DNA from: a virus
Lineage: Duplodnaviria > Heunggongvirae > Uroviricota > Caudoviricetes
Virus record (IMG/VR): IMGVR_UViG_3300042885_000900
Direction: 5' to 3' (one strand)
DNA: 64,000 nucleotides
Shown: piece by piece, positions 1 to 51,584 of the stretch
Layout: the number at the start of each line of letters is the position of its first letter
How positions within the stretch are numbered: the first letter of the stretch is position 1
Notes under the pieces: generated by a model
Told to the model about the DNA's origin: nothing
The model's database searches: none
Seen by the model: the letters and a program-made list of their open reading frames with translations, nothing else
Position numbers and translations under genes: made by a program

Positions 1-14
1 AAGCTGTTGGTGAA

Positions 15-398
15 GTGGATGAAACAACCGAAGGGTTTAAAAGAAATAAAGATTTAAGAGATAAGAAAGAAATTACATACCAACAATTAAAACGAATGAA
101 AAATTGGTTTGATAATTTTGATGGTCACGAAAATGATACCACACATATTTTAAATGGTGGACATTATGTGAAAAATTGGGTCAATGACACATTAAATTCT
201 ATGAGAGATAATGTTGAGAATACTAAACAGAATAAGTCTGAAGTATTACCAAATCAATTCATCCAACCTCACGAAAAAAATGATATGACAAAGATGAATA
301 GACCAACTCAATCACATAAGTCAGCCGTGAATAGATATGATTCAGCAATTGTTGAGAATTTACAAAGAATAAACGATTTAATAAAAAAAATAATTTAA
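15..398 (+). CDS. hypothetical protein (5'-truncated by window edge)
   Basis: Open frame from the window start; C-terminus IVENLQRINDLIKK resembles a motif shared with other proteins here. Confidence 0.7.
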   Translation: MDETTEGFKRNKDLRDKKEITYQQLKRMKNWFDNFDGHENDTTHILNGGHYVKNWVNDTLNSMRDNVENTKQNKSEVLPNQFIQPHEKNDMTKMNRPTQSHKSAVNRYDSAIVENLQRINDLIKKII

Positions 399-401
399 GT
401 T

Positions 402-695
402 ATGGCAAATTTAGACCCAATAGACTTGGCTCAACCAGAAAATAAGTTGTCGTCTATCGCGACAGCACAAAGAGCAATATTATTCCCAAAAAACGATTAT
501 AAAACAACTAACCAATATTCTTCGGTTAATCCTGACGCATTGGCGGATGGAGATACTAAAGGTAAAGGGACTGGTGGTGATTTAGATGTTTATAATCAAG
601 GTGCCGGAGCAATCCAAGACATTTTAGAAAGAAAATCTGAAATAGTTGTGAATACCTTTAAACCAAACGCACCTTACACCACACCAAGCGCTTAA
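402..695 (+). CDS. hypothetical (likely virion) protein
   Basis: 97-aa ORF tightly packed between neighbours. Confidence 0.7.
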   Translation: MANLDPIDLAQPENKLSSIATAQRAILFPKNDYKTTNQYSSVNPDALADGDTKGKGTGGDLDVYNQGAGAIQDILERKSEIVVNTFKPNAPYTTPSA

Positions 696-1111
696 TGAAA
701 CTTTACAATACATTTAAGTCCCTTATTTTAGAAGTAGCGTCAGTTGACTCAATAGTCAATGCTATAAAAAATAAAGACAAGATAATAATTTACTACGATG
801 GTGATGAACCTGGTGGTCGTGGATTAAGGGAGATAGAACCTGTATGTTTTGGATACAGTAAAGCCGATAACCCTGTTCTACGAGCTTGGGATACTCAAGG
901 AGCGTCTCACACCGGTTATAAAGGAGAACAACCTCTACCAGGATGGAGACTTTTTAGAGCAGATAAAATTCTCTCTTTTAAACCATCCGGAGAAAAGTTT
1001 GACACACCAAAACCCGGCTATAATACAGCCGGAGATAAAAGTATGACAAGAGTTATCATAAATGCGGTTTTTAATGAGCAACCAACTCAAACAGAACCAA
1101 CACAATATTAA
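695..1111 (+). CDS. stand-alone WYL-domain-like protein
   Basis: I.Y....G.R.IEP..FG....LRAW...GWRLFR.DKI pattern typical of WYL domains. Confidence 0.7.
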   Translation: MKLYNTFKSLILEVASVDSIVNAIKNKDKIIIYYDGDEPGGRGLREIEPVCFGYSKADNPVLRAWDTQGASHTGYKGEQPLPGWRLFRADKILSFKPSGEKFDTPKPGYNTAGDKSMTRVIINAVFNEQPTQTEPTQY

Positions 1112-1117
1112 AACATT

Positions 1118-1729
1118 ATGACAAACGAAAATAGTTTAATGGAAAAATTAATGGTGTCTAAAAAAATGATAGACATTCATAACCAAACACCAAGAGGGGG
1201 ATTACCTTCTATGAATTCATATAATTCACCTGAAGTAGAATCATACGATGCTCCACAAGCAAAGTATTCATTACCTCAAGAGTTTTTACAAGAAAATTCA
1301 ACAACAAATGAACCTTATTTATCGTCAATACCTAAAACACCAACGATGCCACAACCTCTTACAAGTGATAGAGTTATGTCATCTAAATTACCTGACGAAA
1401 TAAAACGATTAATGATAGAACACCCAATTAACCAACCAAGTTCTATGGGTGGTGGTTCAGTTTTATCTGATGAATTAGTTGAAAAAGCGTCAAAATTAAT
1501 GAATTTAAAAGGTAATCAACAACCAACCCAAGTTGTTAAAGAACAATCATCTCAACCAAATTTTAATAACAAACAATTAAAGGAAATGTTAAAAGAAGTT
1601 GTTGAGGAAGTTTTATTAGAAAATGGTGTGATTGCCGAATCAACACAAAAATCAAACGAACTCTTCTCTTTTAAAGTTGGAAAACATGTTTTTGAAGGTA
1701 AGGTAACCAAGATTAAAAAATTATCTTAA
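1118..1729 (+). CDS. hypothetical protein
   Basis: 203-aa ORF followed by a terminator. Confidence 0.7.
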   Translation: MTNENSLMEKLMVSKKMIDIHNQTPRGGLPSMNSYNSPEVESYDAPQAKYSLPQEFLQENSTTNEPYLSSIPKTPTMPQPLTSDRVMSSKLPDEIKRLMIEHPINQPSSMGGGSVLSDELVEKASKLMNLKGNQQPTQVVKEQSSQPNFNNKQLKEMLKEVVEEVLLENGVIAESTQKSNELFSFKVGKHVFEGKVTKIKKLS

Positions 1730-1749
1730 CTTTATTTACTCTCAAGATT

Positions 1750-1780
1750 AACCCTCATCTACCAAGTTGGGGGTTTTTTT
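1750..1780 (+). terminator. intrinsic terminator
   Basis: aaccctca...tgggggtt stem followed by a U-tract. Confidence 0.6.
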
Positions 1781-1837
1781 ATTTAAAAAACTTTCCTTTT
1801 GATTAAACCGGTATATTTATATAATAAAGATAAAGTT

Positions 1838-2752
1838 ATGGATATTAAAACTGAAAAAAAAATTATCTCCGAATATAAAAAGGGGAAAAGTAGTTTAGAA
1901 ATTGTTAAAATTGTTGGATTATCAAAACCAACAATTCTTAAAGTACTACACAAACATAATTTAGTTAGAAAAAGAGATAGATGTTCTTCTTTAAATATTA
2001 AAAAAGATGGGGAAAAATACTATATTATTCGTAAATGTCCAAAATGTGGTCAAGACATAAAAACTACATCAAAAGATAGAACAATTGCTTGTCGGAATTA
2101 TTTTAATTCCATAAATAAAAATAGTAATTGTGTTAAATGTATGTCAGAATCTTTTATTGGTGAGGGAAATCATTTTTTTGGTAAAACTCACAAAAAAGAA
2201 AGTTTAGAAAAAATATCCAAAAGTAAAAAAGGTCAAAATTCAGGGGATAAAAATCATATGAAACAAGAAAAATATCGTCAAATGAGTAGAGATATTATGA
2301 GGTCAAATTGGGATAACGGTATATTAGATAGGGGTGTAATTTCTGAGCAAATGAAACAAACTCAACGAAGTGGTAAAATTAAATCAACTATTGTTTCAAA
2401 AAAAGAAAAAGAGATTGTTAAAGAATTGAGAAAATTAGGTTATAAAATAATTCATTCATATCGGGTTGATAGTAAAGTGTGTGATGTATATATCCCATCA
2501 TTAAATTTAATTATAGAGTATTTTGGAGATTATTGGCATTGTAATCCAAAAAAATATGAACCAAATTATTTTAATCAGAAAAAAAATAAATTTGCTTGGG
2601 AATTATGGGATTATGATAAAAAGAAACTTGAATTAATTAAAAGTTATGGTTATAATTTAGAAGTTGTGTGGGAGGGAGACCTAAAACTCAACAATAAATT
2701 AATAGAAATCATAATAGAATCCTATGTCACAAAACTCACTTCAACGCCCTAA
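1838..2752 (+). CDS. free-standing homing-type endonuclease (NUMOD3-like repeats + Vsr/DUF559-like PD-(D/E)XK domain)
   Basis: NHFFGKTH..E....IS NUMOD3-like motif, CxxC pairs, C-terminal CDVYIPSLNLIIEYFGDYWH...VVWE; ATG at 1838 follows a TATTTAT motif. Confidence 0.75.
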   Translation: MDIKTEKKIISEYKKGKSSLEIVKIVGLSKPTILKVLHKHNLVRKRDRCSSLNIKKDGEKYYIIRKCPKCGQDIKTTSKDRTIACRNYFNSINKNSNCVKCMSESFIGEGNHFFGKTHKKESLEKISKSKKGQNSGDKNHMKQEKYRQMSRDIMRSNWDNGILDRGVISEQMKQTQRSGKIKSTIVSKKEKEIVKELRKLGYKIIHSYRVDSKVCDVYIPSLNLIIEYFGDYWHCNPKKYEPNYFNQKKNKFAWELWDYDKKKLELIKSYGYNLEVVWEGDLKLNNKLIEIIIESYVTKLTSTP

Positions 2753-3983
2753 CGGTCAAGAAAAGATTAGCGTACTCGTACTGCCATCTGACCGCTCGGG
2801 CGTTGGTTAACAAAACGGTAAATTTCGCTCAGTCGACCCCCATGTATTCCTACAAAATCAATATCCCGATGATTTTCATGTGGATATTGATTACGACCCA
2901 AAGATAGATGATATTAATTATTGGAAAAAATATCAGATAATTCACGCACATAGAACTATTGGTAATAACTACGATGTGTCGGCACAAATAATTAAAGGGT
3001 TAAAAGAATTAGGGATTATTGTTATTGTTGATATTGATGATTATTGGTTACCAACAGTAGACCACCCAATCCATAGTATTATTGTAAAACATAAAATCCA
3101 CGAAAAAATAGTTGCAAATTTAAAAGAAGCCAGTTATGTTACAACAACAACTGATTTATTTGCAAACGAAATTCGTAAGCTTAATAAAAATGTACTAGTT
3201 TTACCAAACGCTATAAATCCAAAAGAGGGTCAATTTAATCAACCAACACCACCATCAGAAAAAATTAGAGTCGGATGGCTTGGAGGTAGTTCTCACATTG
3301 AGGATTTAAATTTGTTGGGGAATTTTGTTCAAAAAAATCAAGACATAAATGATAAATTACAATATGTTATTTGTGGTTTTGATATTAGAGGTACCGTAAC
3401 GGAAATGAATCCACAAACAGGTGAAGAAAGAAAAAGAGATATATTACCTCACGAAACTGTTTGGACTAAATATGAAGATATTTTCACTAACAAGTATAAA
3501 ACCATAGATGAGAACTATAAAAAACATTTATTAGAGTTCAAAGAAAGAGAATTTTTATCAACAAGTGATTTACCATATGTTAGAGTTTGGACAAAACCTG
3601 TTACAACTTACGCTATGAATTATTCAAAATTTGATATATCTTTGGCACCAATTAAAAATCATATATTCAATAGGATGAAATCTCAATTAAAGGTGATTGA
3701 GGCTGGGTTTTATAAAAAAGCGTTAATTGCTTCAGAAATCGGACCTTACACCATTGATTTAAAACATTGTTTGAAAAATGGTAATTTTACAGATGGTAAC
3801 GCAATTTTAATACCCGAGAATAGAAATCATAGTGATTGGTCTAAATCAATTAAAAAATTGGTTCAAAACCCTGAAATGATTACTGAATTAGGCGAGAGAT
3901 TATTTGAAACTGTTAAAGACAAATATGATTTAAAAAATGTGACCGTTACAAGAGCAGAATTTTACAAATCTTTAATTAAATAA
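2724..3983 (+). CDS. GT-B (GT4-like) glycosyltransferase interrupted by an in-frame TAA at 2808-2810
   Basis: ATG 2724 is in frame with ORF 2880-3983; reads ...VLVLPSDRSGVG*QNGKFRSVDPH...; body has DIDDYW, GWLGGSSH, FNRMKSQLKVIEAG motifs. Confidence 0.75.
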
Positions 3984-3986
3984 AAA

Positions 3987-4688
3987 ATGATAAACATACC
4001 TTTAACCAAAATATTGTTTCTTGATATTGAAACAGTTGGTGGATGTAAAAACTATACCGAGTGTAAAGTTAACAATCCTAATGTGGCAAAACAATTTGAA
4101 AAATATTTTGATTGGTTTCAAAAAAGATTTCCGGAAGATGTTGGTCGGTCATTTGACTATGTCTTTGAAAAACGAGCGGCATTAGTTCCCGAGTTTGCAA
4201 AAATTGTTTGTGTTAGTGTTGCTTTCGTTATGGATAATGGAGATATTAAAAAACAATCATTCTCCGGAGATGATGAAAAAAAATTACTAAAAGATTGCCA
4301 AACATTACTTAATCGTTGTGGTAAATTAGATTTTTATCTATGTGGACATAATCTTAAAAATTTTGACATCCCAATGTTGGCAAAAAGAATGATAATTAAC
4401 GGATTAAAACCATCCTCAATACTACCGTCTTACAATACAAAACCGTGGGAGATTAAAGCCATTGACACCAAAGAAATTTGGCAATACGGAGCTTACACCG
4501 CAATTGGTTCATTGGACTTAATGTGTTCTTGTATGGATGTTCCATCACCAAAGGAAGGTGATGTTACTGGAGATAAAGTTCACGACGCGTATTGGAATAA
4601 AAATATGTTATCAGAAATCACTGCTTATTGTGAGCGTGATGTGTTAGTATTAATTGATGTAATAAAAAAATTAAAAGAATTAGAATAA
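3987..4688 (+). CDS. 3'-5' exonuclease (DEDDy, PolB-exonuclease-like)
   Basis: FLDIET, GHNLKNFDIP, YCERDV motifs. Confidence 0.85.
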   Translation: MINIPLTKILFLDIETVGGCKNYTECKVNNPNVAKQFEKYFDWFQKRFPEDVGRSFDYVFEKRAALVPEFAKIVCVSVAFVMDNGDIKKQSFSGDDEKKLLKDCQTLLNRCGKLDFYLCGHNLKNFDIPMLAKRMIINGLKPSSILPSYNTKPWEIKAIDTKEIWQYGAYTAIGSLDLMCSCMDVPSPKEGDVTGDKVHDAYWNKNMLSEITAYCERDVLVLIDVIKKLKELE

Positions 4689-5284
4689 TGGAATATAATA
4701 ATTTAGATTTTTTAGAGGAAAAGGCTAAAGAATTAAGACAAAGATTAGAGGGTGATTTTGAAGATTTAGATATGACCGAAATGATGAATGAATTGGGTGT
4801 TGATATTAAAGATTTAGAGGATAAAATGTTAAATCATAGAACTAAATTACCTTTACAATTTAATAAATTACATCCCGATGCCGTAACACCTAAATACAAT
4901 TACGAAGGTGATTCGGGATTTGATTTACATTCTATTGATGAGATAATTATACCCCCATTTGGAAGAGCTTTAGTCCCAACAGGATTATCCTTTGACATTA
5001 AAGATGGTTATGAAATTCAAGTTAGAACCAAAAGTGGGTTAGCCATTAATCAGGGTCTTATGATATTAAATTCTCCCGGAACAGTAGATTCCTCATACAC
5101 AGGAGAAATAAAAGGAATTATTTTTAACACTAACCCTTTTGAGTTTACAATACCTAAAGGTATGAAAATAGGACAAGCTGTTCTATGTCCTGTTGTAAAT
5201 GGGGGGTGGGTTGACTTAATTGAGGTTAACAAAATAAACGAAAAAGATAGAGGTGAGAATGGATTTGGAAGTACAGGAATATAA
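4688..5284 (+). CDS. dut: dUTPase
   Basis: SGFDL, RTKSGLA, PGTVDSSYTGEI, RGENGFGSTG motifs. Confidence 0.95.
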   Translation: MEYNNLDFLEEKAKELRQRLEGDFEDLDMTEMMNELGVDIKDLEDKMLNHRTKLPLQFNKLHPDAVTPKYNYEGDSGFDLHSIDEIIIPPFGRALVPTGLSFDIKDGYEIQVRTKSGLAINQGLMILNSPGTVDSSYTGEIKGIIFNTNPFEFTIPKGMKIGQAVLCPVVNGGWVDLIEVNKINEKDRGENGFGSTGI

Positions 5285-5306
5285 CTCAACAAATTTAAAA
5301 GTGGTC

Positions 5307-5834
5307 ATGAGACCTTATGAATCAGAACACGAATTAAGATTGTTTTGTCAAGAATTAAGAGAAACTTTAGGAGATTCTCCTACAATTGTTGAGCTTGGTT
5401 CATACATGGGAGAAAGTAGTTTAATTTTTTCACAAGAATTTCCGAATGGAAAAATTATATGTATTGACTCGTGGGAAGGAGGTTTTGATGATTCTGATTC
5501 TGCTAGCCACGCTGATTATATTGATGTTGAAGAACAATTTGATTTAAGATTATCGTCTGTAAATAACATTACAAAATTAAAAGGGTATTCAACAGACTTT
5601 ACAATAGAATGTGATATGGTTTATATTGACGCTTGTCATAAATATGAGTGTGTTATGAACGATATTAAACATTGGAACCCATTGACTAAAAAAGTTATCT
5701 CTGGTCATGATTATAATACAGATGAATTTATTGTGGTTCATTCACATATAGCCGGAGTTAAAGTGGCAATAAACGAATCATTAGGAGTTCCGGATAAAAC
5801 ATTCGGAGATGGCTCTTGGTTTAAATTAAAATAA
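5307..5834 (+). CDS. class I SAM-dependent methyltransferase (Methyltransf_24-like)
   Basis: VELGSYMGES, IDSW, VYIDACHKYE, SGHDY; start placed at ATG 5307. Confidence 0.8.
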   Translation: MRPYESEHELRLFCQELRETLGDSPTIVELGSYMGESSLIFSQEFPNGKIICIDSWEGGFDDSDSASHADYIDVEEQFDLRLSSVNNITKLKGYSTDFTIECDMVYIDACHKYECVMNDIKHWNPLTKKVISGHDYNTDEFIVVHSHIAGVKVAINESLGVPDKTFGDGSWFKLK

Positions 5835-5835
5835 T

Positions 5836-6384
5836 ATGAAACATTTTTATATAGAGATTGATGGGTTTGCCGCGGATGAGGAACAAGGAGAATTACTTAG
5901 AACGATATTAACTAAAATTGATACCAAAACAAGTATAAATATTGCTGAAATTGGTGTTTATAAAGGAAGAGGAACCTCATTATGGAATATAGAATTAATG
6001 AACCATAATGTTGAATACACTTATTACGCGATAGACCATTTCATGGGGTCTAATGAACATGATAAATCGGTAGATTATTATAATATAACATTAAATAATT
6101 TACGACCAATACTTAATAAAATACATTTAATAAAAAATGATTCAGTTTCTGAATCGCAAAATTACCCTGATAATTTTTTTGATATTGTCTATATTGATGC
6201 GTCTCATGAATATGAATATGTCCTTGAAGATATTAAAAAATGGTTACCAAAAGTTAAAGATGGTGGTATAATTTGCGGAGATGATTACATTAGTGGATGG
6301 GACGGGGTAATAATAGGGGTAAATGAAGTATTCCAAGATAAAGTGAATATTGTTGGGAAACAACAATGGTGGGTTAAAAAATAA
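5836..6384 (+). CDS. class I SAM-dependent methyltransferase (Methyltransf_24-like)
   Basis: AEIGVYKG, IDHF, YIDASHEYE, GGIICGDDY. Confidence 0.85.
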   Translation: MKHFYIEIDGFAADEEQGELLRTILTKIDTKTSINIAEIGVYKGRGTSLWNIELMNHNVEYTYYAIDHFMGSNEHDKSVDYYNITLNNLRPILNKIHLIKNDSVSESQNYPDNFFDIVYIDASHEYEYVLEDIKKWLPKVKDGGIICGDDYISGWDGVIIGVNEVFQDKVNIVGKQQWWVKK

Positions 6385-9405: not shown

Positions 9406-10400
9406 TTTTTAATTCTTTGTAAATTAACCAATAGATGGTTTAGTTTATTTTTTTTAACATAAGAATAAGTACCAAAATCATTAGTGATTAATTCATTAAG
9501 GTATTGGTACTTATTTATTTTTTCAATAACTTCACCCAATTCTCGTTTTTTTCTTCTACAACACATATGTTTAGTTAATTCATCAATTAAACCTAATTTT
9601 GATATTTTAACATAAATTGGACGCTCATTTTTATAAAACTCAGCAAATGAATTATATGTGTTAGTAATCTTAATTAAATCGTCAATATCATATACTTCAG
9701 AATAAGGGTTACCAATAATAACATTATTAATTTCATTAACCGATATGTTAATTTTTAAATCTTCAAGTTTTAATATTAATTGATTTTTTATATCTGTTTC
9801 ATAATCTCTATTATTTTCGTTAAGAGTTATTAATGTGATGTTTTTTAATAATGATAAATTATTTTTTAACTTATCCCGTTCGTTATCAATATGCCATCCC
9901 TTACCGTTATATTCAAACCCAAGATTATAGTCTGGTAAATATACATCAATTTCATATGGTTTTAATGTTCTTCTATCATTATAGACTATATTATCAGTGT
10001 TATATAATTTAGAAATAATATCTTTAAGAATTAATTGTGGAATACTAAACGACTTTGAAATCATATGGGAACAGATATCATTTAAAACACCATTTCGTCT
10101 TGAAGAAGAGTATGCTGACGGGTCATTCTTTTGAAATTCCGATTTTGTTTTATATTTTTTTGCAATTAATGATAATGTTTCGTAATTCAAATCCCTACCA
10201 ACCATTTTATTTCTTTTAGAGATACATTTTGATTTATGAGAGTTTGATTTATGTAACCCTAATTTATTTGCTTTAACATAAATAGATAGTTTAGTTCTAT
10301 CCAGAATTTTACACAATTCAGAATTAAACATATTTGAATAATTTTTCACTAAATAATTAATTTCGTCTTCCGACCAAACTTTTCTTTTATTTTCTTCCAT
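9402..10400 (-). CDS. homing-type PD-(D/E)XK endonuclease
   Basis: YEIDVYLPDYNLGFEYNGKGWH plus repeated helical DNA-binding units; antisense to its neighbours. Confidence 0.65.
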   Translation of the reverse strand: MEENKRKVWSEDEINYLVKNYSNMFNSELCKILDRTKLSIYVKANKLGLHKSNSHKSKCISKRNKMVGRDLNYETLSLIAKKYKTKSEFQKNDPSAYSSSRRNGVLNDICSHMISKSFSIPQLILKDIISKLYNTDNIVYNDRRTLKPYEIDVYLPDYNLGFEYNGKGWHIDNERDKLKNNLSLLKNITLITLNENNRDYETDIKNQLILKLEDLKINISVNEINNVIIGNPYSEVYDIDDLIKITNTYNSFAEFYKNERPIYVKISKLGLIDELTKHMCCRRKKRELGEVIEKINKYQYLNELITNDFGTYSYVKKNKLNHLLVNLQRIKN

Positions 10401-24058: not shown

Positions 24059-25768
24059 TTATAATTCTAATCGATATTTAAATAACCCACAATCCCATAT
24101 TTTGTCATAACCCAATTCAGATGTGAGTTCTTTTTCCGTTTTATTATAGTCTAAATCCGGAAATCTTTTTTTAAGATTATTTTTACCAAATCCAAATTTA
24201 TGAAATCTTTTGTATTTACTAATTTTTGAATTATAATAATAATAATTTGGTTTTGTTATTGATACTAAATTAAACCCCAAATTAGTATATAGATTATTTT
24301 CCGGATTAATTGTCCATCTTCTATCCGCAAAACTAATTATTGATGTTGGGTTATACTCATTAATAAAATGTTTAATAAATTTAGAGGCTAACCCCCTAAT
24401 TAAATAATTTTGTTTTGTTGCGTATCGACTTAATTCAAATTCACCGTCATTATTTTTAGTCATATTTCTACGACCATTAAATGTTATAACACCAACTAAT
24501 TCATTATTATAATATGCCCCGTAATATATGTTTGACTTATCGGTGCCTTGTATATGATTATTATTTAAAAAAAATGTTTTATCTTCTAAATTTATTTTTT
24601 TAATGACAACATTTCTACCACCAATTTTAACACCATCATTTACATTTAATAAATGTTTTAATTTTGATTTAACTAATTCGGTATTAATAACCCATTCATC
24701 CTCAAAAATATGTATTAATTTATATCCTATTTGATTACACTCTATTGTTTTATTTAGATGATATGATGAAGTTTTTCCCATTTTTTCTGTGTGATAATAT
24801 AATCCATCATACTCAATACAAATATTGGTACCATCAACAATCAAATCAATTTCTTTACCATCTAATAATTTACGATTTTTACCTTTATTAACCATAAATC
24901 CAACACTTTCGATAAACTCTTTAATCTCCGTCTCACCTTTTGATGTCCAAGTAGGTATCATATTAATATTTGTTAGTTTCGCTAAATCACTTAAACATTC
25001 AGAAATAGATGTTGAAACTATTTTTTCATTAGGATATTTTAATTTATATTCTAATGTTGTGATATTATGTTTATTTTTTAAATGAGTGTTTGATATACTT
25101 TTCATTTTTTCACCACAAATTTTACAAATAACATAATTTTTACTTTTAGATAAAAATTTGGTTAATTCTGTTTTTTTTATGTAATTTGGGTGATGTTTAA
25201 TATCTTCAGGGAATTTTAATAAATAATCATCTAATGTTATTTTATGAGATTTACTTATATGTGTCTCAAAACAACCTGTTTTATTTGAAGTGTCTTCTGT
25301 TACCCACTCACATAATTTACATTTTCTTGTAGGAGAATTTTCAATCTTAATTATGTTGAAATACTCCTCAAACCACTTTTTGTTGTTAATTAATTCGTAT
25401 TTTTTTCTTTGGTAAGTATTGGATGGAATCCATACATCTCCATATAACTCAATAATATGTTTGGTTAATTTACCGGATAAATTATTGGGGTCTTTAATTA
25501 CCATATTAGTTTTTTTACATTGAGCAATTAATTCGTGGGTATCTGAAGTTGTATATAAGTTAGATTTTGTGGTTTCAATTTCAAAACTATTCCCCATTTG
25601 GGTTTGACCACCTTTTTTATTAATCACAATATTATTTTCCTTTAATATTTGACTAATTTTTTTATGACCAACCTTAAATTTTTCGGCTAATTTATGAGTA
25701 CTCGGAATTTCAGTTTGATATAATTCAATAATGTTAATTATAATTTCAGGTGTTAATTTGGTTTTCAT
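24059..25768 (-). CDS. homing-type endonuclease (Zn-finger repeats + PD-(D/E)XK)
   Basis: CKLC/CKIC..H fingers, EIDL...IEYDGLYYH, IHIFEDEW; lies just downstream of the capsid gene. Confidence 0.7.
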   Translation of the reverse strand: MKTKLTPEIIINIIELYQTEIPSTHKLAEKFKVGHKKISQILKENNIVINKKGGQTQMGNSFEIETTKSNLYTTSDTHELIAQCKKTNMVIKDPNNLSGKLTKHIIELYGDVWIPSNTYQRKKYELINNKKWFEEYFNIIKIENSPTRKCKLCEWVTEDTSNKTGCFETHISKSHKITLDDYLLKFPEDIKHHPNYIKKTELTKFLSKSKNYVICKICGEKMKSISNTHLKNKHNITTLEYKLKYPNEKIVSTSISECLSDLAKLTNINMIPTWTSKGETEIKEFIESVGFMVNKGKNRKLLDGKEIDLIVDGTNICIEYDGLYYHTEKMGKTSSYHLNKTIECNQIGYKLIHIFEDEWVINTELVKSKLKHLLNVNDGVKIGGRNVVIKKINLEDKTFFLNNNHIQGTDKSNIYYGAYYNNELVGVITFNGRRNMTKNNDGEFELSRYATKQNYLIRGLASKFIKHFINEYNPTSIISFADRRWTINPENNLYTNLGFNLVSITKPNYYYYNSKISKYKRFHKFGFGKNNLKKRFPDLDYNKTEKELTSELGYDKIWDCGLFKYRLEL

Positions 25769-50684: not shown

Positions 50685-50711
50685 GCACTTTATAAAACTT
50701 TTTTTTTTCAG

Positions 50712-50802
50712 TGGTATCAACGGGACTCGAACCTGTGACACAGGGTTTTTCAAAACCCTTGCTCTACCAAGGGAAATAAATCTCCCACTGAGCTATAATA
50801 CC
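50712..50802 (-). tRNA. aberrant tRNA (Phe-like) with D-loop hairpin insertion and 8-nt anticodon loop
   Basis: GGTATTA/TGATACC acceptor, TAGCTCAGT..TGGTAGAGC D-arm, AGGGT-TTTGAAAA-ACCCT, GGTTCGAGTCC. Confidence 0.7.
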
Positions 50803-50810
50803 ATATAAAA

Positions 50811-50895
50811 TAATGTGGGTGTATGCTCTACCATCTGAGCTACGGATTTGAAACCGGAGGGATTTGAAACCTCGACACAACACCCACACCATTAC
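50811..50895 (-). ncRNA. circularly permuted tRNA-like element
   Basis: Order on minus strand: anticodon-stem 3' strand, variable GTGTC, T-arm, closed short acceptor, TAGCTCAGATGGTAGAGCA D-arm, anticodon-stem 5' strand. Confidence 0.65.
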
Positions 50896-50967
50896 TTCAA
50901 TGAACTTATTTTCTTCTACAAAGATAATACATTTATTTTAATCTGTCAAATATTTTTTGAAATTTTT

Positions 50968-51177
50968 TTAATTCATATTATCCAAGAACATTTCAATAAT
51001 CTCATCTTCCTCTTCATCTGTCCCTTCGGCTCCGTTAAGCCATTCTATGGTATCTACAGTGTAATCGTCCCAATTGTCCCAGAATGCGTGAATTGTAAAT
51101 CCTCTTCCATCCTCTGTTTGACCATCATAATCATAATTTGCTGAAGTTAAAATTTCACTCGAATAATTTATTTCCAT
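50968..51177 (-). CDS. small acidic hypothetical protein
   Basis: MEINYSSEIL...; the longer called start lies inside a tRNA-like gene. Confidence 0.55.
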   Translation of the reverse strand: MEINYSSEILTSANYDYDGQTEDGRGFTIHAFWDNWDDYTVDTIEWLNGAEGTDEEEDEIIEMFLDNMN

Positions 51178-51197
51178 TTTTACTTTTTTAATTTTTG

Positions 51198-51330
51198 TGT
51201 GTCGTACAGGATTCGAACCTATAACCATGCGTAATCTTCTACTTCAACTCATTGTACTTTTGAGTCCGTCACAGCTTGTTAGTATAAGTAGCTTTTCTTA
51301 TACTGTGTCTACCAATTCCACCAACGACAC
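51198..51330 (-). ncRNA. tRNA-like RNA (133 nt; Leu-type D-arm, extended anticodon and variable regions)
   Basis: GTGTCGT/ACGACAC acceptor, GGTGGAATTGGTAGACAC, AGTATAAG/CTTATACT 8-bp stem, ATAGG TTCGAAT CCTGT. Confidence 0.65.
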
Positions 51331-51339
51331 ATATTTTTG

Positions 51340-51432
51340 TAGTCAGGAGAGGAATCGAACCTCTCTACAGGGAGCTACCCGTCATCCATGACCTTCCATC
51401 GGACTCGAACCGACCTTGTATCCAACCTGACT
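51340..51432 (-). ncRNA. tRNA-like RNA with two T-loop hairpins and no D-arm
   Basis: AGTCAGG/CCTGACT acceptor, AGAGG TTCGATT CCTCT, internal TCGG TTCGAGT CCGA. Confidence 0.6.
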
Positions 51433-51584
51433 ATTTTTCGCTAATGTTAAAAACTGAGTCAATCCTCCAAAAAAACACTAACTTGGTACTTACCTATCTT
51501 GGCTCCCCCATCCATTTTAAATATATATTCACCTGAAACTTCAGCGGGTTGTTGATTGACCACTCCCACCTACTCAAGTAGTTT

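Follow-up and report, generated by a model that had tools for sequence, protein, structure and literature searches.

Probable short-distance translational bypass in a phage glycosyltransferase gene that has acquired a mobile endonuclease cassette

The stretch of DNA investigated here, referred to as the window, is 64,000 nucleotides (nt) long and comes from a large lake phage (Caudoviricetes; IMGVR_UViG_3300042885_000900). Within it, a glycosyltransferase (GT) gene is interrupted close to its start by a stop codon and a short gap, flanked by two Gly codons, at the right-hand end of a mobile cassette that carries a homing-endonuclease-like gene. Sequence comparisons suggest, with a probability of roughly 80 %, that the gene is decoded by programmed short-distance translational bypass from the first of these Gly codons (take-off) to the second (landing). 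An original prediction, made from the sequence alone, had proposed such a hop; it is supported by a cassette border that falls on the landing codon, gap lengths that vary independently of the frame, and an upstream stem that covaries. The interrupted gene consists of the following parts.

2724..2807, plus strand: GT piece 1, 28 codons, from the ATG to the take-off Gly codon
2808..2816, plus strand: coding gap TAACAAAAC, TAA and six A/C bases, not present in uninterrupted homologs
2817..3983, plus strand: GT piece 2, landing GGT 2817-19 and 387 codons (KFRSVDPH...), followed by TAA 3981-83

The ATG at 2724 starts MSQNSLQRPNGQEKISVLVLPSDRSGVG, the translation of the 28-codon first piece, which ends at the take-off GGT (2805-07). 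This is followed by TAA (2808-10), CAA, AAC and the landing GGT (2817-19), from which the reading frame continues for 388 codons to the TAA at 3981-83; the coordinates originally given for the start, take-off, stop and landing all match the sequence. Piece 1 encodes a 10-residue N-terminal extension, the first β-strand (β1, ISVLVL) and the Gly loop (PSDRSGVG). It was also claimed that removal of 12 nt restores the GT strand and Gly loop, and indeed homologs without the cassette read ...GVGKFRS..., the same junction that is made when the two pieces are joined at their Gly codons. A protein-guided scan of IMG/VR identified 374 relatives, 80 of which were taken for comparison. The majority read MKEKINVLVLPSDxxGVGKFRS, without interruption, and the position of the interruption is exactly between GVG and KFRS. 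The GC-rich stretch and rare codons noted previously are confirmed by the GC profile (45-52 % over 2730-2850, against 31 % for the whole window) and by codon counts. Piece 1 contains seven rare codons (CGC twice; AGC, CTC, CTG, TCG, and GGC once each), none of which exceeds 4.3 per thousand in this genome (CGC 0.3, CTG 0.7, GGC 1.0, CTC 1.1, AGC 1.6, and TCG 4.3).

Pattern scans of IMG/VR and the JGI metagenomes identified 139 interrupted loci representing 86 distinct alleles, with some contigs occurring in both collections. All 86 alleles have a Gly codon, a stop, a gap, and a Gly codon followed by KFRS, and in all alleles examined the first piece is 26-29 codons, open from the ATG to the take-off Gly codon. 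The most frequent combinations of take-off, stop, and landing codon are GGC-TGA-GGT (32 alleles) and GGT-TAA-GGT (30), followed by GGT-TAA-GGA (9), GGT-TAA-GGC (7), and GGT-TGA-GGT (5). The remaining combinations are represented by one allele each: GGT-TGA-GGA; GGT-TA-GGT (L245), in which the stop codon TAG overlaps the landing codon; and GGT-GCT-TAA...GGT. The take-off/landing pair is GGY/GGY in 76 of the 86 alleles, including the GGT/GGT of the window, and GGT/GGA, a two-of-three match, in the other 10. The stop codon (TAA, TGA, or TAG) is directly after the take-off codon in all but one allele (85 out of 86), the exception being the GCT-TAA of L069.

Gap length is variable. It is most often 3 nt (64 alleles) or 8 nt (14 alleles, with six different sequences), with other alleles having gaps of 2 nt (1), 6 nt (2), 9 nt (2, one of which is the window), 11 nt (1), 12 nt (1), or 41 nt (1). 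In 17 of the 86 alleles the gap (2, 8, 11, or 41 nt) changes the frame. In the distinct gaps of 6-12 nt, the bases after the stop codon are A (43), C (17), and T (2), and never G. The 8-nt gap of L015 and the 9-nt gap of L011 are preceded by upstream sequences identical at 90 out of 90 positions, and the window is identical to L015 at 85 out of 90 positions upstream of the gap. A separate contig (L254), with flanks 95-97 % identical to those of the window, has the same 9-nt gap. An assembly artefact is ruled out, since many independent metagenome assemblies, that of L254 among them, show this architecture, with 86 distinct alleles in total.

The variation of gap length regardless of frame favours a hop over stop-codon readthrough, which had been raised previously as an alternative and is disfavoured on these grounds. 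In readthrough, TAA or TGA would be decoded by a near-cognate or suppressor tRNA and the gap would be translated, adding two to five residues (G-x-Q-N in the window). In nature, readthrough occurs far more often than hopping, and the 9-nt gap of the window and the commonest gap, of 3 nt, both keep the frame. However, it cannot rescue the 17 alleles with gaps of 2, 8, 11, or 41 nt, nor does it fit a cassette that has both 8-nt and 9-nt gaps behind identical upstream sequence. TAA and TGA are interchangeable among the alleles, no suppressor tRNA was found in the window, and TAA, TAG, and TGA all terminate open reading frames (ORFs) in this genome. Readthrough also leaves the flanking Gly codons and the G-less gap unexplained, and it is very unlikely to be how these genes are decoded. 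A hop of peptidyl-tRNA-Gly over 5-15 nt (44 nt in one allele) would be the only form of decoding that serves all of the alleles and also restores the conserved protein. Three features known to promote hopping occur here, namely matched codons, a stop codon in the A site, and a gap without competing triplets.

Several other forms of decoding were considered and rejected. A reassigned genetic code is rejected on the use of stop codons, the 51 long ORFs of the window ending with TAA (44), TAG (5), or TGA (2). A +1 frameshift at GGT-T enters a short dead-end ORF (2803-2907), and a -1 frameshift, considered for the 8-nt alleles, has no slippery heptamer and cannot serve the alleles with gaps of 2, 3, or 41 nt. 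Termination and reinitiation would need a start codon close to the landing site, and none is present. A micro-intron appears unlikely, as gaps of 2-12 nt are far below any known intron size. Shine-Dalgarno (SD)-like 4-mers are present upstream of 6 of the 51 long ORFs (2.9 expected), a low frequency that fits a host not relying on SD pairing. When the window was scanned for further codon-stop-codon sites flanked by long open frames, ordinary gene ends were all that was found.

Two further observations come from the allele series. The 41-nt gap, in L069 (1244-1361 of a 4.9-kb contig), follows the order GGT GCT TAA, a perfect 7-bp G/C stem-loop, an A-rich stretch, and GGT AAA. In this allele the N-terminal extension differs, a sense codon is present between take-off and stop, and there are possible earlier landing codons (GGT, GGG, and GGA) in the stem; it looks similar to gene 60 of phage T4. 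In addition, the pattern scan caught an unrelated, highly conserved phage protein family with ...SSGDGWGKFRSVDPQAVAESK... (many of the loci L097-L148, for example L097:3414-3445), present on about 25 large IMG/VR contigs. Members of the SSGDGWGKFRSVDPQAVAESK family are uninterrupted and match the GKFRSxDP motif by chance.

Both pieces of the GT gene are under strong purifying selection on the protein sequence. Between clade representatives of the interrupted alleles, the nonsynonymous (dN) and synonymous (dS) rates are 0.19 and 1.35 for the last 15 codons before take-off, and 0.20 and 1.27 for the first 22 codons after landing, giving a dN/dS of about 0.15 on both flanks of the gap. On both sides, Ser is encoded as either TCN or AGY and Arg as either CGN or AGR. 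The downstream ORF is 386-389 codons and is intact in every interrupted allele for which the contig is long enough. The first in-frame ATG, GTG, or TTG past the landing codon is located anywhere from codon 6 to codon 215, and no conserved restart codon after the gap was found in the interrupted alleles.

These data bear upon the possibility that the gene has been inactivated or split by a selfish cassette, with recent invasions leaving the pieces unjoined, or that the GT is an internally initiated product. Homing cassettes can spread at a cost, and under some conditions the phages may be able to do without the GT genes of this cluster. However, piece 1 keeps β1 and the Gly loop, with a dN/dS of about 0.14, across cassettes with endonucleases that are only 38-87 % identical, and the downstream ORF is intact even beside a decayed endonuclease gene, indicating long residence. 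Likewise, there is strong conservation of the 22 codons that separate landing from any possible start, some alleles have no possible start before codon 167 or 215, and random lesions would not all take the form Gly-stop-(A/C)n-Gly. Inactivation or internal initiation is therefore very unlikely, and joining of the two pieces by a hop is preferred.

Piece 2 matches the glycosyltransferase family phrog_7162 (1.4e-45). A Pfam search of the GT gave no match at E<=0.01, and the Glycos_transf_1-type score is below the gathering threshold (Glyco_trans_1_4, 15.1 bits against a cut-off of 27). The uninterrupted protein of L003, which is 98 % identical to that of the window, was modelled using AlphaFold2 (AF2; pLDDT 74, pTM 0.78), and the solved structures closest to the model in Foldseek are the GT4 enzymes MshA, GlgM, PglA, PimA, and BshA (E 2e-12 to 1e-10; 2e-12 to 1e-11 for MshA, PimA, BshA, and PglA). 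Based on this model, the GT is predicted to be a GT4-like glycosyltransferase of the GT-B fold with two Rossmann-like domains, in which residues 5-10 are β1 and residues 11-24 are the Gly loop. The junction is in the β1-Gly-loop-α1 element of this fold, therefore a protein without piece 1 would lack the first strand.

Upstream of the gap is a hairpin whose 3′ arm reaches bases 1 and 2 of the take-off codon.

2741..2806, plus strand: 5′ hairpin with outer stem 2741-49/2798-2806, middle stem 2753-58/2789-94, and a variable apex

Both stems of the original prediction (2742-49/2798-2805 and 2753-58/2789-94) are predicted by RNAfold. The minimum free energy of the window hairpin is -26.9 kcal/mol (z = -2.55), and 2 out of 200 shuffled sequences fold as well. 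When 33 distinct alleles from viral contigs were folded singly, a three-tier hairpin of about 65 nt was found, at -24 to -35 kcal/mol, with the 3′ arm of the outer stem ending at, or taking in the first bases of, the take-off codon. The allele with the 41-nt gap folds at -47.6 kcal/mol and is the only one to have a second hairpin, inside the gap. The 123 nt running up to the landing codon have folding energies of -31.2 ± 3.5 kcal/mol over the full set of 86 alleles. In matched segments, interrupted alleles fold at -29.9 ± 2.5 kcal/mol and 31 uninterrupted alleles, from which the hairpin is absent, at -12.7 ± 3.2 kcal/mol.

With 32 alleles aligned using a covariance model, 85.2 % of cells are paired, against 33-54 % with slid partners, and 30 cells have double changes, against 6.7 ± 2.7 in shuffles (reached by none of 500). 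Since the structure itself guides such an alignment, the comparison that matters is with the slid and shuffled controls. Compensatory changes are seen at four pairs (for example CG/GC/UA), one pair having six types, and several of the covarying 3′ positions are third-codon positions of Ser/Thr and Gly codons. Alignment using MAFFT followed by RNAalifold on 129-nt segments gave a trivial 4-bp helix only, with the 5′ arm shifted by one column between clades. The 5′ arms are encoded by the N-terminal extension, which is not present in uninterrupted alleles. As the peptide of the extension varies between clades while the pairing is kept, the extension appears to exist for the RNA rather than for the peptide. 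The extension and the hairpin are both confined to alleles that have the gap, and an RNA covariance model search found no second copy of the hairpin in the window.

The borders of the cassette are evident from phages that are near-identical to the window on either side of it.

1783..2816, plus strand: mobile cassette of 1,034 nt, with the endonuclease gene, the recoded GT 5′ end with its N-terminal extension, the hairpin, and the gap
1118..1729, plus strand: conserved upstream neighbour gene, the left homology flank, with a terminator-like hairpin and T-run to about 1782
2817..2866, plus strand: recoded or co-converted tract, with eight differences from L003 in 50 nt

Three loci (L002-L004) have 93-96 % nucleotide identity to the window on both flanks, are collinear with the upstream flank as far as 1782, and do not have 1783-2816. 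Comparison of window positions 1-6000 with each of these by blastn gave matches that end at 1782 and restart at 2817; the right border of the cassette is exactly the landing codon, and the left border adjoins the terminator of the upstream gene. In place of the 1,034-nt cassette, these loci have 110 nt, made up of intergenic DNA and the first 18 GT codons. Beyond the right border, the tract 2817-2866 encodes an unchanged protein despite its eight nucleotide differences from L003, and past 2866 the density of mismatches is about 2 per 50 nt (50-nt bins). The presence or absence of 1783-2816 and the altered border tract are the signature of a mobile endonuclease cassette. The nearest assembly record (G001) is also without the endonuclease. 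A blastn search of a phage collection gave no useful match, and tblastn against the same collection gave distant GTs only (<=35 %), one of them uninterrupted in a 735-kb phage.

The cassette encodes the following endonuclease.

1838..2752, plus strand: homing-endonuclease-like ORF, with NUMOD3 and PHROG matches

This ORF is open from TTG 1799, ATG 1838 being the likely start. It has a Pfam NUMOD3 match that passes the cut-off (7e-6) and PHROG matches to HNH/homing-endonuclease families. Its C-terminal domain has a weak match, below the cut-off, to the PD-(D/E)XK family REase_MTES_1575 (E 0.0027), and no relative was found in the PDB by sequence. Its last 29 nt overlap the GT start, and its stop codon, TAA 2750-52, is in the internal loop of the hairpin. 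The GDYWHCNP-type region of this protein also gave weak matches in tblastn at 9876-9947 (E 0.026) and 24788-24865 (E 0.24), both on the minus strand of the window, which may be further diverged endonuclease genes.

The original prediction that the interruption is linked to the endonuclease is upheld in part. A full endonuclease homolog (38-87 % identity) is located just upstream in most interrupted alleles, and the gap and stem mostly occur together with it; however, the link is not obligatory. There is only a C-terminal remnant of the endonuclease in L032 and L137, a frameshifted copy in L101 and L121, and none in the interrupted alleles L083, L092, L112, L120, and L147. In L254, a 220-residue HNH-type ORF (3804-4466, plus strand; ...WHIDHIIPLS...) is in place of the NUMOD3-type endonuclease, the last 28 codons of which remain at 4540-4626, with the hairpin and 9-nt gap unchanged; this is an endonuclease swap at one homing site. 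The gap and hairpin thus persist after truncation, frameshift, loss, or HNH replacement of the endonuclease. Conversely, L023, L034, and L048 have an endonuclease with an uninterrupted GT that lacks the hairpin. In L023 (1133-2350), L048 (3953-5167), and L073 (3950-5167), two of which are directly behind an endonuclease homolog, the uninterrupted GT has Ser (TCG or TCA) at the landing position, which suggests an alternative, substitution-based immunity of the target site.

It is with respect to these same alleles that a role for the hairpin other than in the hop can be assessed. The hairpin and GC-rich recoding might serve the endonuclease, by giving immunity at the target site, by affecting how the mRNA is processed or how stable it is, or by controlling expression of the endonuclease or the GT, with the link between hairpin and gap being merely physical. 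The position of the endonuclease stop codon in the internal loop, the overlap of the GT start with the endonuclease 3′ end, and the recoding on either side of the gap, which fits escape of the target site, are in keeping with this, as is the lack of conservation of 5′ stem-loops in gene-60 homologs (bioRxiv 10.1101/2022.08.31.505936). Against this, the hairpin is kept, with compensatory changes, in the five interrupted alleles that have no endonuclease, its 3′ arm ends at the take-off codon in the 33 singly folded alleles, and it is not found in the three endonuclease-positive uninterrupted alleles. It is extremely unlikely that the hairpin serves the endonuclease in this way; this explanation bears on the role of the hairpin only and is compatible with a hop.

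Based on these comparisons, a mechanism for the programmed hop can be proposed. The cassette has replaced the GT 5′ end with its own recoded copy, ending with a Gly codon, a stop codon, and six A/C bases, after which the resident gene continues from the landing GGT. Translation through the 28-codon piece would be slowed by the rare codons and the strong hairpin, and the ribosome would then stall, with its A site at TAA, which is slow to decode, and its peptidyl-tRNA-Gly paired to GGT. This tRNA would unpair, the mRNA would slip forward by 12 nt, and the tRNA would re-pair with the next GGN; the window gap has no G-containing triplet before the landing codon and so would offer no competing re-pairing. 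Translation would restart at AAA, with ...SGVG-KFRS... as the product. With GGT in the P site, the 9 nt of the hairpin 3′ arm would be in the mRNA exit path, and this arm could re-zip with the 5′ arm, which has already exited, pulling the mRNA forward by about 5-15 nt; the re-zipped hairpin would also block backward slippage. The insert and the synonymous recoding on either side of it would destroy the endonuclease target, making the carrier immune, while the hop would keep the GT functional. Destruction of the target by insertion and recoding is most likely, by analogy with T4 MobA and gene 60.

There are observations that weigh against a programmed hop or against parts of this mechanism. Taken alone, the gaps that are multiples of three, including the 9 nt of the window, fit readthrough with two to five residues added to the Gly loop. 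For the 10 GGT/GGA alleles, one tRNA-Gly does not read both codons by standard wobble, so two-of-three re-pairing in the P site has to be assumed. The nascent chain at take-off is only 26-29 residues and is without a peptide signal like that of gene 60. Short peptidyl-tRNAs drop off easily. The allele with the 41-nt gap, which has GCT before the stop codon, is known from one short contig only, and L023, L034, and L048 show that interruption is not the sole route to coexistence with the endonuclease. The hairpin would be only a candidate driver, given that the 5′ stem-loop is not conserved among gene-60 homologs (bioRxiv 10.1101/2022.08.31.505936). The hop may also be inefficient, and the cassette would then be chiefly a parasite.

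The closest known system is the bypass cassette of T4 gene 60 with its endonuclease MobA, reportedly described by Huang in 1988 and Bonocora in 2011. As in that system, non-coding sequence is inserted where an essential motif has a conserved Gly codon, take-off and landing Gly codons match, a stop codon is right after take-off, the gap has no premature landing triplets, and an endonuclease cassette brings recoded adjoining codons and an N-terminal extension. In both, the bypass outlives decay or a change of type of the endonuclease, and the T4 insert is held by Manning & Atkins to protect against the cassette's own endonuclease, MobA (bioRxiv 10.1101/2022.08.31.505936). Pairing of the exiting mRNA is now argued to be the driver in gene 60 (bioRxiv 10.1101/2024.12.09.627546).

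The site in the window nevertheless differs from T4 gene 60 in many respects. The gene is a GT4-like glycosyltransferase rather than the Toprim region of the topoisomerase (Topo) II large-subunit gene, and it is not split into two ORFs by the endonuclease. The endonuclease, unlike MobA, has NUMOD3 and, on the weak match given above, possibly a domain of the PD-(D/E)XK type. The gaps measure 2-12 nt, in place of about 50 nt. T4 has a take-off (A-site) stem-loop, formed from the take-off codon, stop, and early gap, whereas the 9 nt of the window gap are unpaired. Piece 1 does not contain a motif such as the KKYK...SSS found 14-30 residues before take-off in T4, and there is no G in the window gap for a mini-SD like that about 6 nt 5′ of the T4 landing site; in the 3-nt alleles, TGAGG or TAAGG resembles an SD but overlaps the landing codon. 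While the 5′ stem-loop of T4 is 9 nt upstream and is not conserved, the 65-nt hairpin here covaries and ends in the take-off codon. By its host gene and its lack of the take-off stem-loop, nascent-peptide signal, and mini-SD, the site is not a member of the T4 gene 60/MobA family.

Synthetic 'stop-hops', between matched codons flanking a stop codon so that 9 nt encode one amino acid, are established in Escherichia coli (PMC5009743). The GGY-TRA-GGN of 64 alleles is the synthetic stop-hop form, and the GGT-TA-GGT of L245 is that of a +5 hop. Whereas synthetic stop-hops are artificial, have no stimulators, and have an efficiency of about 1 %, the sites here are natural and conserved and have a dedicated RNA structure. 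The artificial constructs in E. coli comprise stop-hops, made in 1987, and +5 and +6 hops (Weiss, Dunn, Atkins & Gesteland 1987; O'Connor 1989; PMC5009743). According to a 2016 review in NAR, natural cases shorter than gene 60 had long been anticipated, and no natural stop-hop was known (PMC5009743). In the mitochondria of Magnusiomyces capitatus, short 'byp' inserts are similarly skipped between matched or near-matched codons (Lang 2014; Nosek 2015), although these are mobile GC-clusters of 27-55 nt, present in many genes and without an endonuclease gene, while the present case is a single site in a single phage gene, where the gaps are shorter and a hairpin lies upstream.

In common with the free-standing homing endonucleases of phages (seg and mob of T4; MobE in nrdA of phage Aeh1), the endonuclease is present or absent at one intergenic site in near-identical phages, adjoins a conserved target gene, and is associated with a tract of synonymous differences at the insertion. 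Those systems rely on target polymorphism or on gene splitting with added tails, in contrast to the stop-containing insertion within a reading frame seen here. Full-text literature searches gave no report of bypassing in a phage glycosyltransferase gene; one overlapping paper describes an unresolved start of the tape-measure gene beside an HNH gene in mycobacteriophage Corndog (PMC4351075). It is somewhat favoured by the sequence evidence that the interrupted GT genes are a second, evolutionarily independent family of phage bypassing and the first natural stop-hop, with a jump driven mainly by re-zipping of the hairpin rather than by a nascent-peptide signal or an A-site stem-loop.

The region 50700-51450 of the window contains unusual tRNA-like sequences. 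ARAGORN reports a 92-nt 'tRNA-???' with a four-base anticodon (ccct) at 50711-50802 and a 94-nt tRNA-Pro(tgg) at 51339-51432, both on the minus strand and both about 15-20 nt too long, with more tRNA-like fragments between them. These may be tRNA genes that contain introns, are permuted, or have degenerated. An expanded-anticodon tRNA would be of interest given that there is a recoding site in the same genome.

Thus far, efficient bypassing in bacteria and phages consists of T4 gene 60 and its homologs in one gene, and the gene 60 bypass cassette 'remains unique' (bioRxiv 10.1101/2022.08.31.505936). If the reading of these alleles as hops is correct, an endonuclease together with a hop would be a recurrent evolutionary solution, found in a non-homologous family with 86 alleles, minimal gaps, and a different stimulatory RNA. 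It would also provide a simple system in which pairing of the exiting mRNA could be tested as the driver (bioRxiv 10.1101/2024.12.09.627546), and the series of gaps of 2-12 nt and 41 nt behind a constant element would be a natural ruler for the distance over which the ribosome is pulled. There are implications for annotation as well, as the interrupted GT genes are called as truncated ORFs that begin at a GTG or ATG inside the gene, and other genes with Xxx-stop-Xxx sites of this kind may pass for pseudogenes or readthrough.

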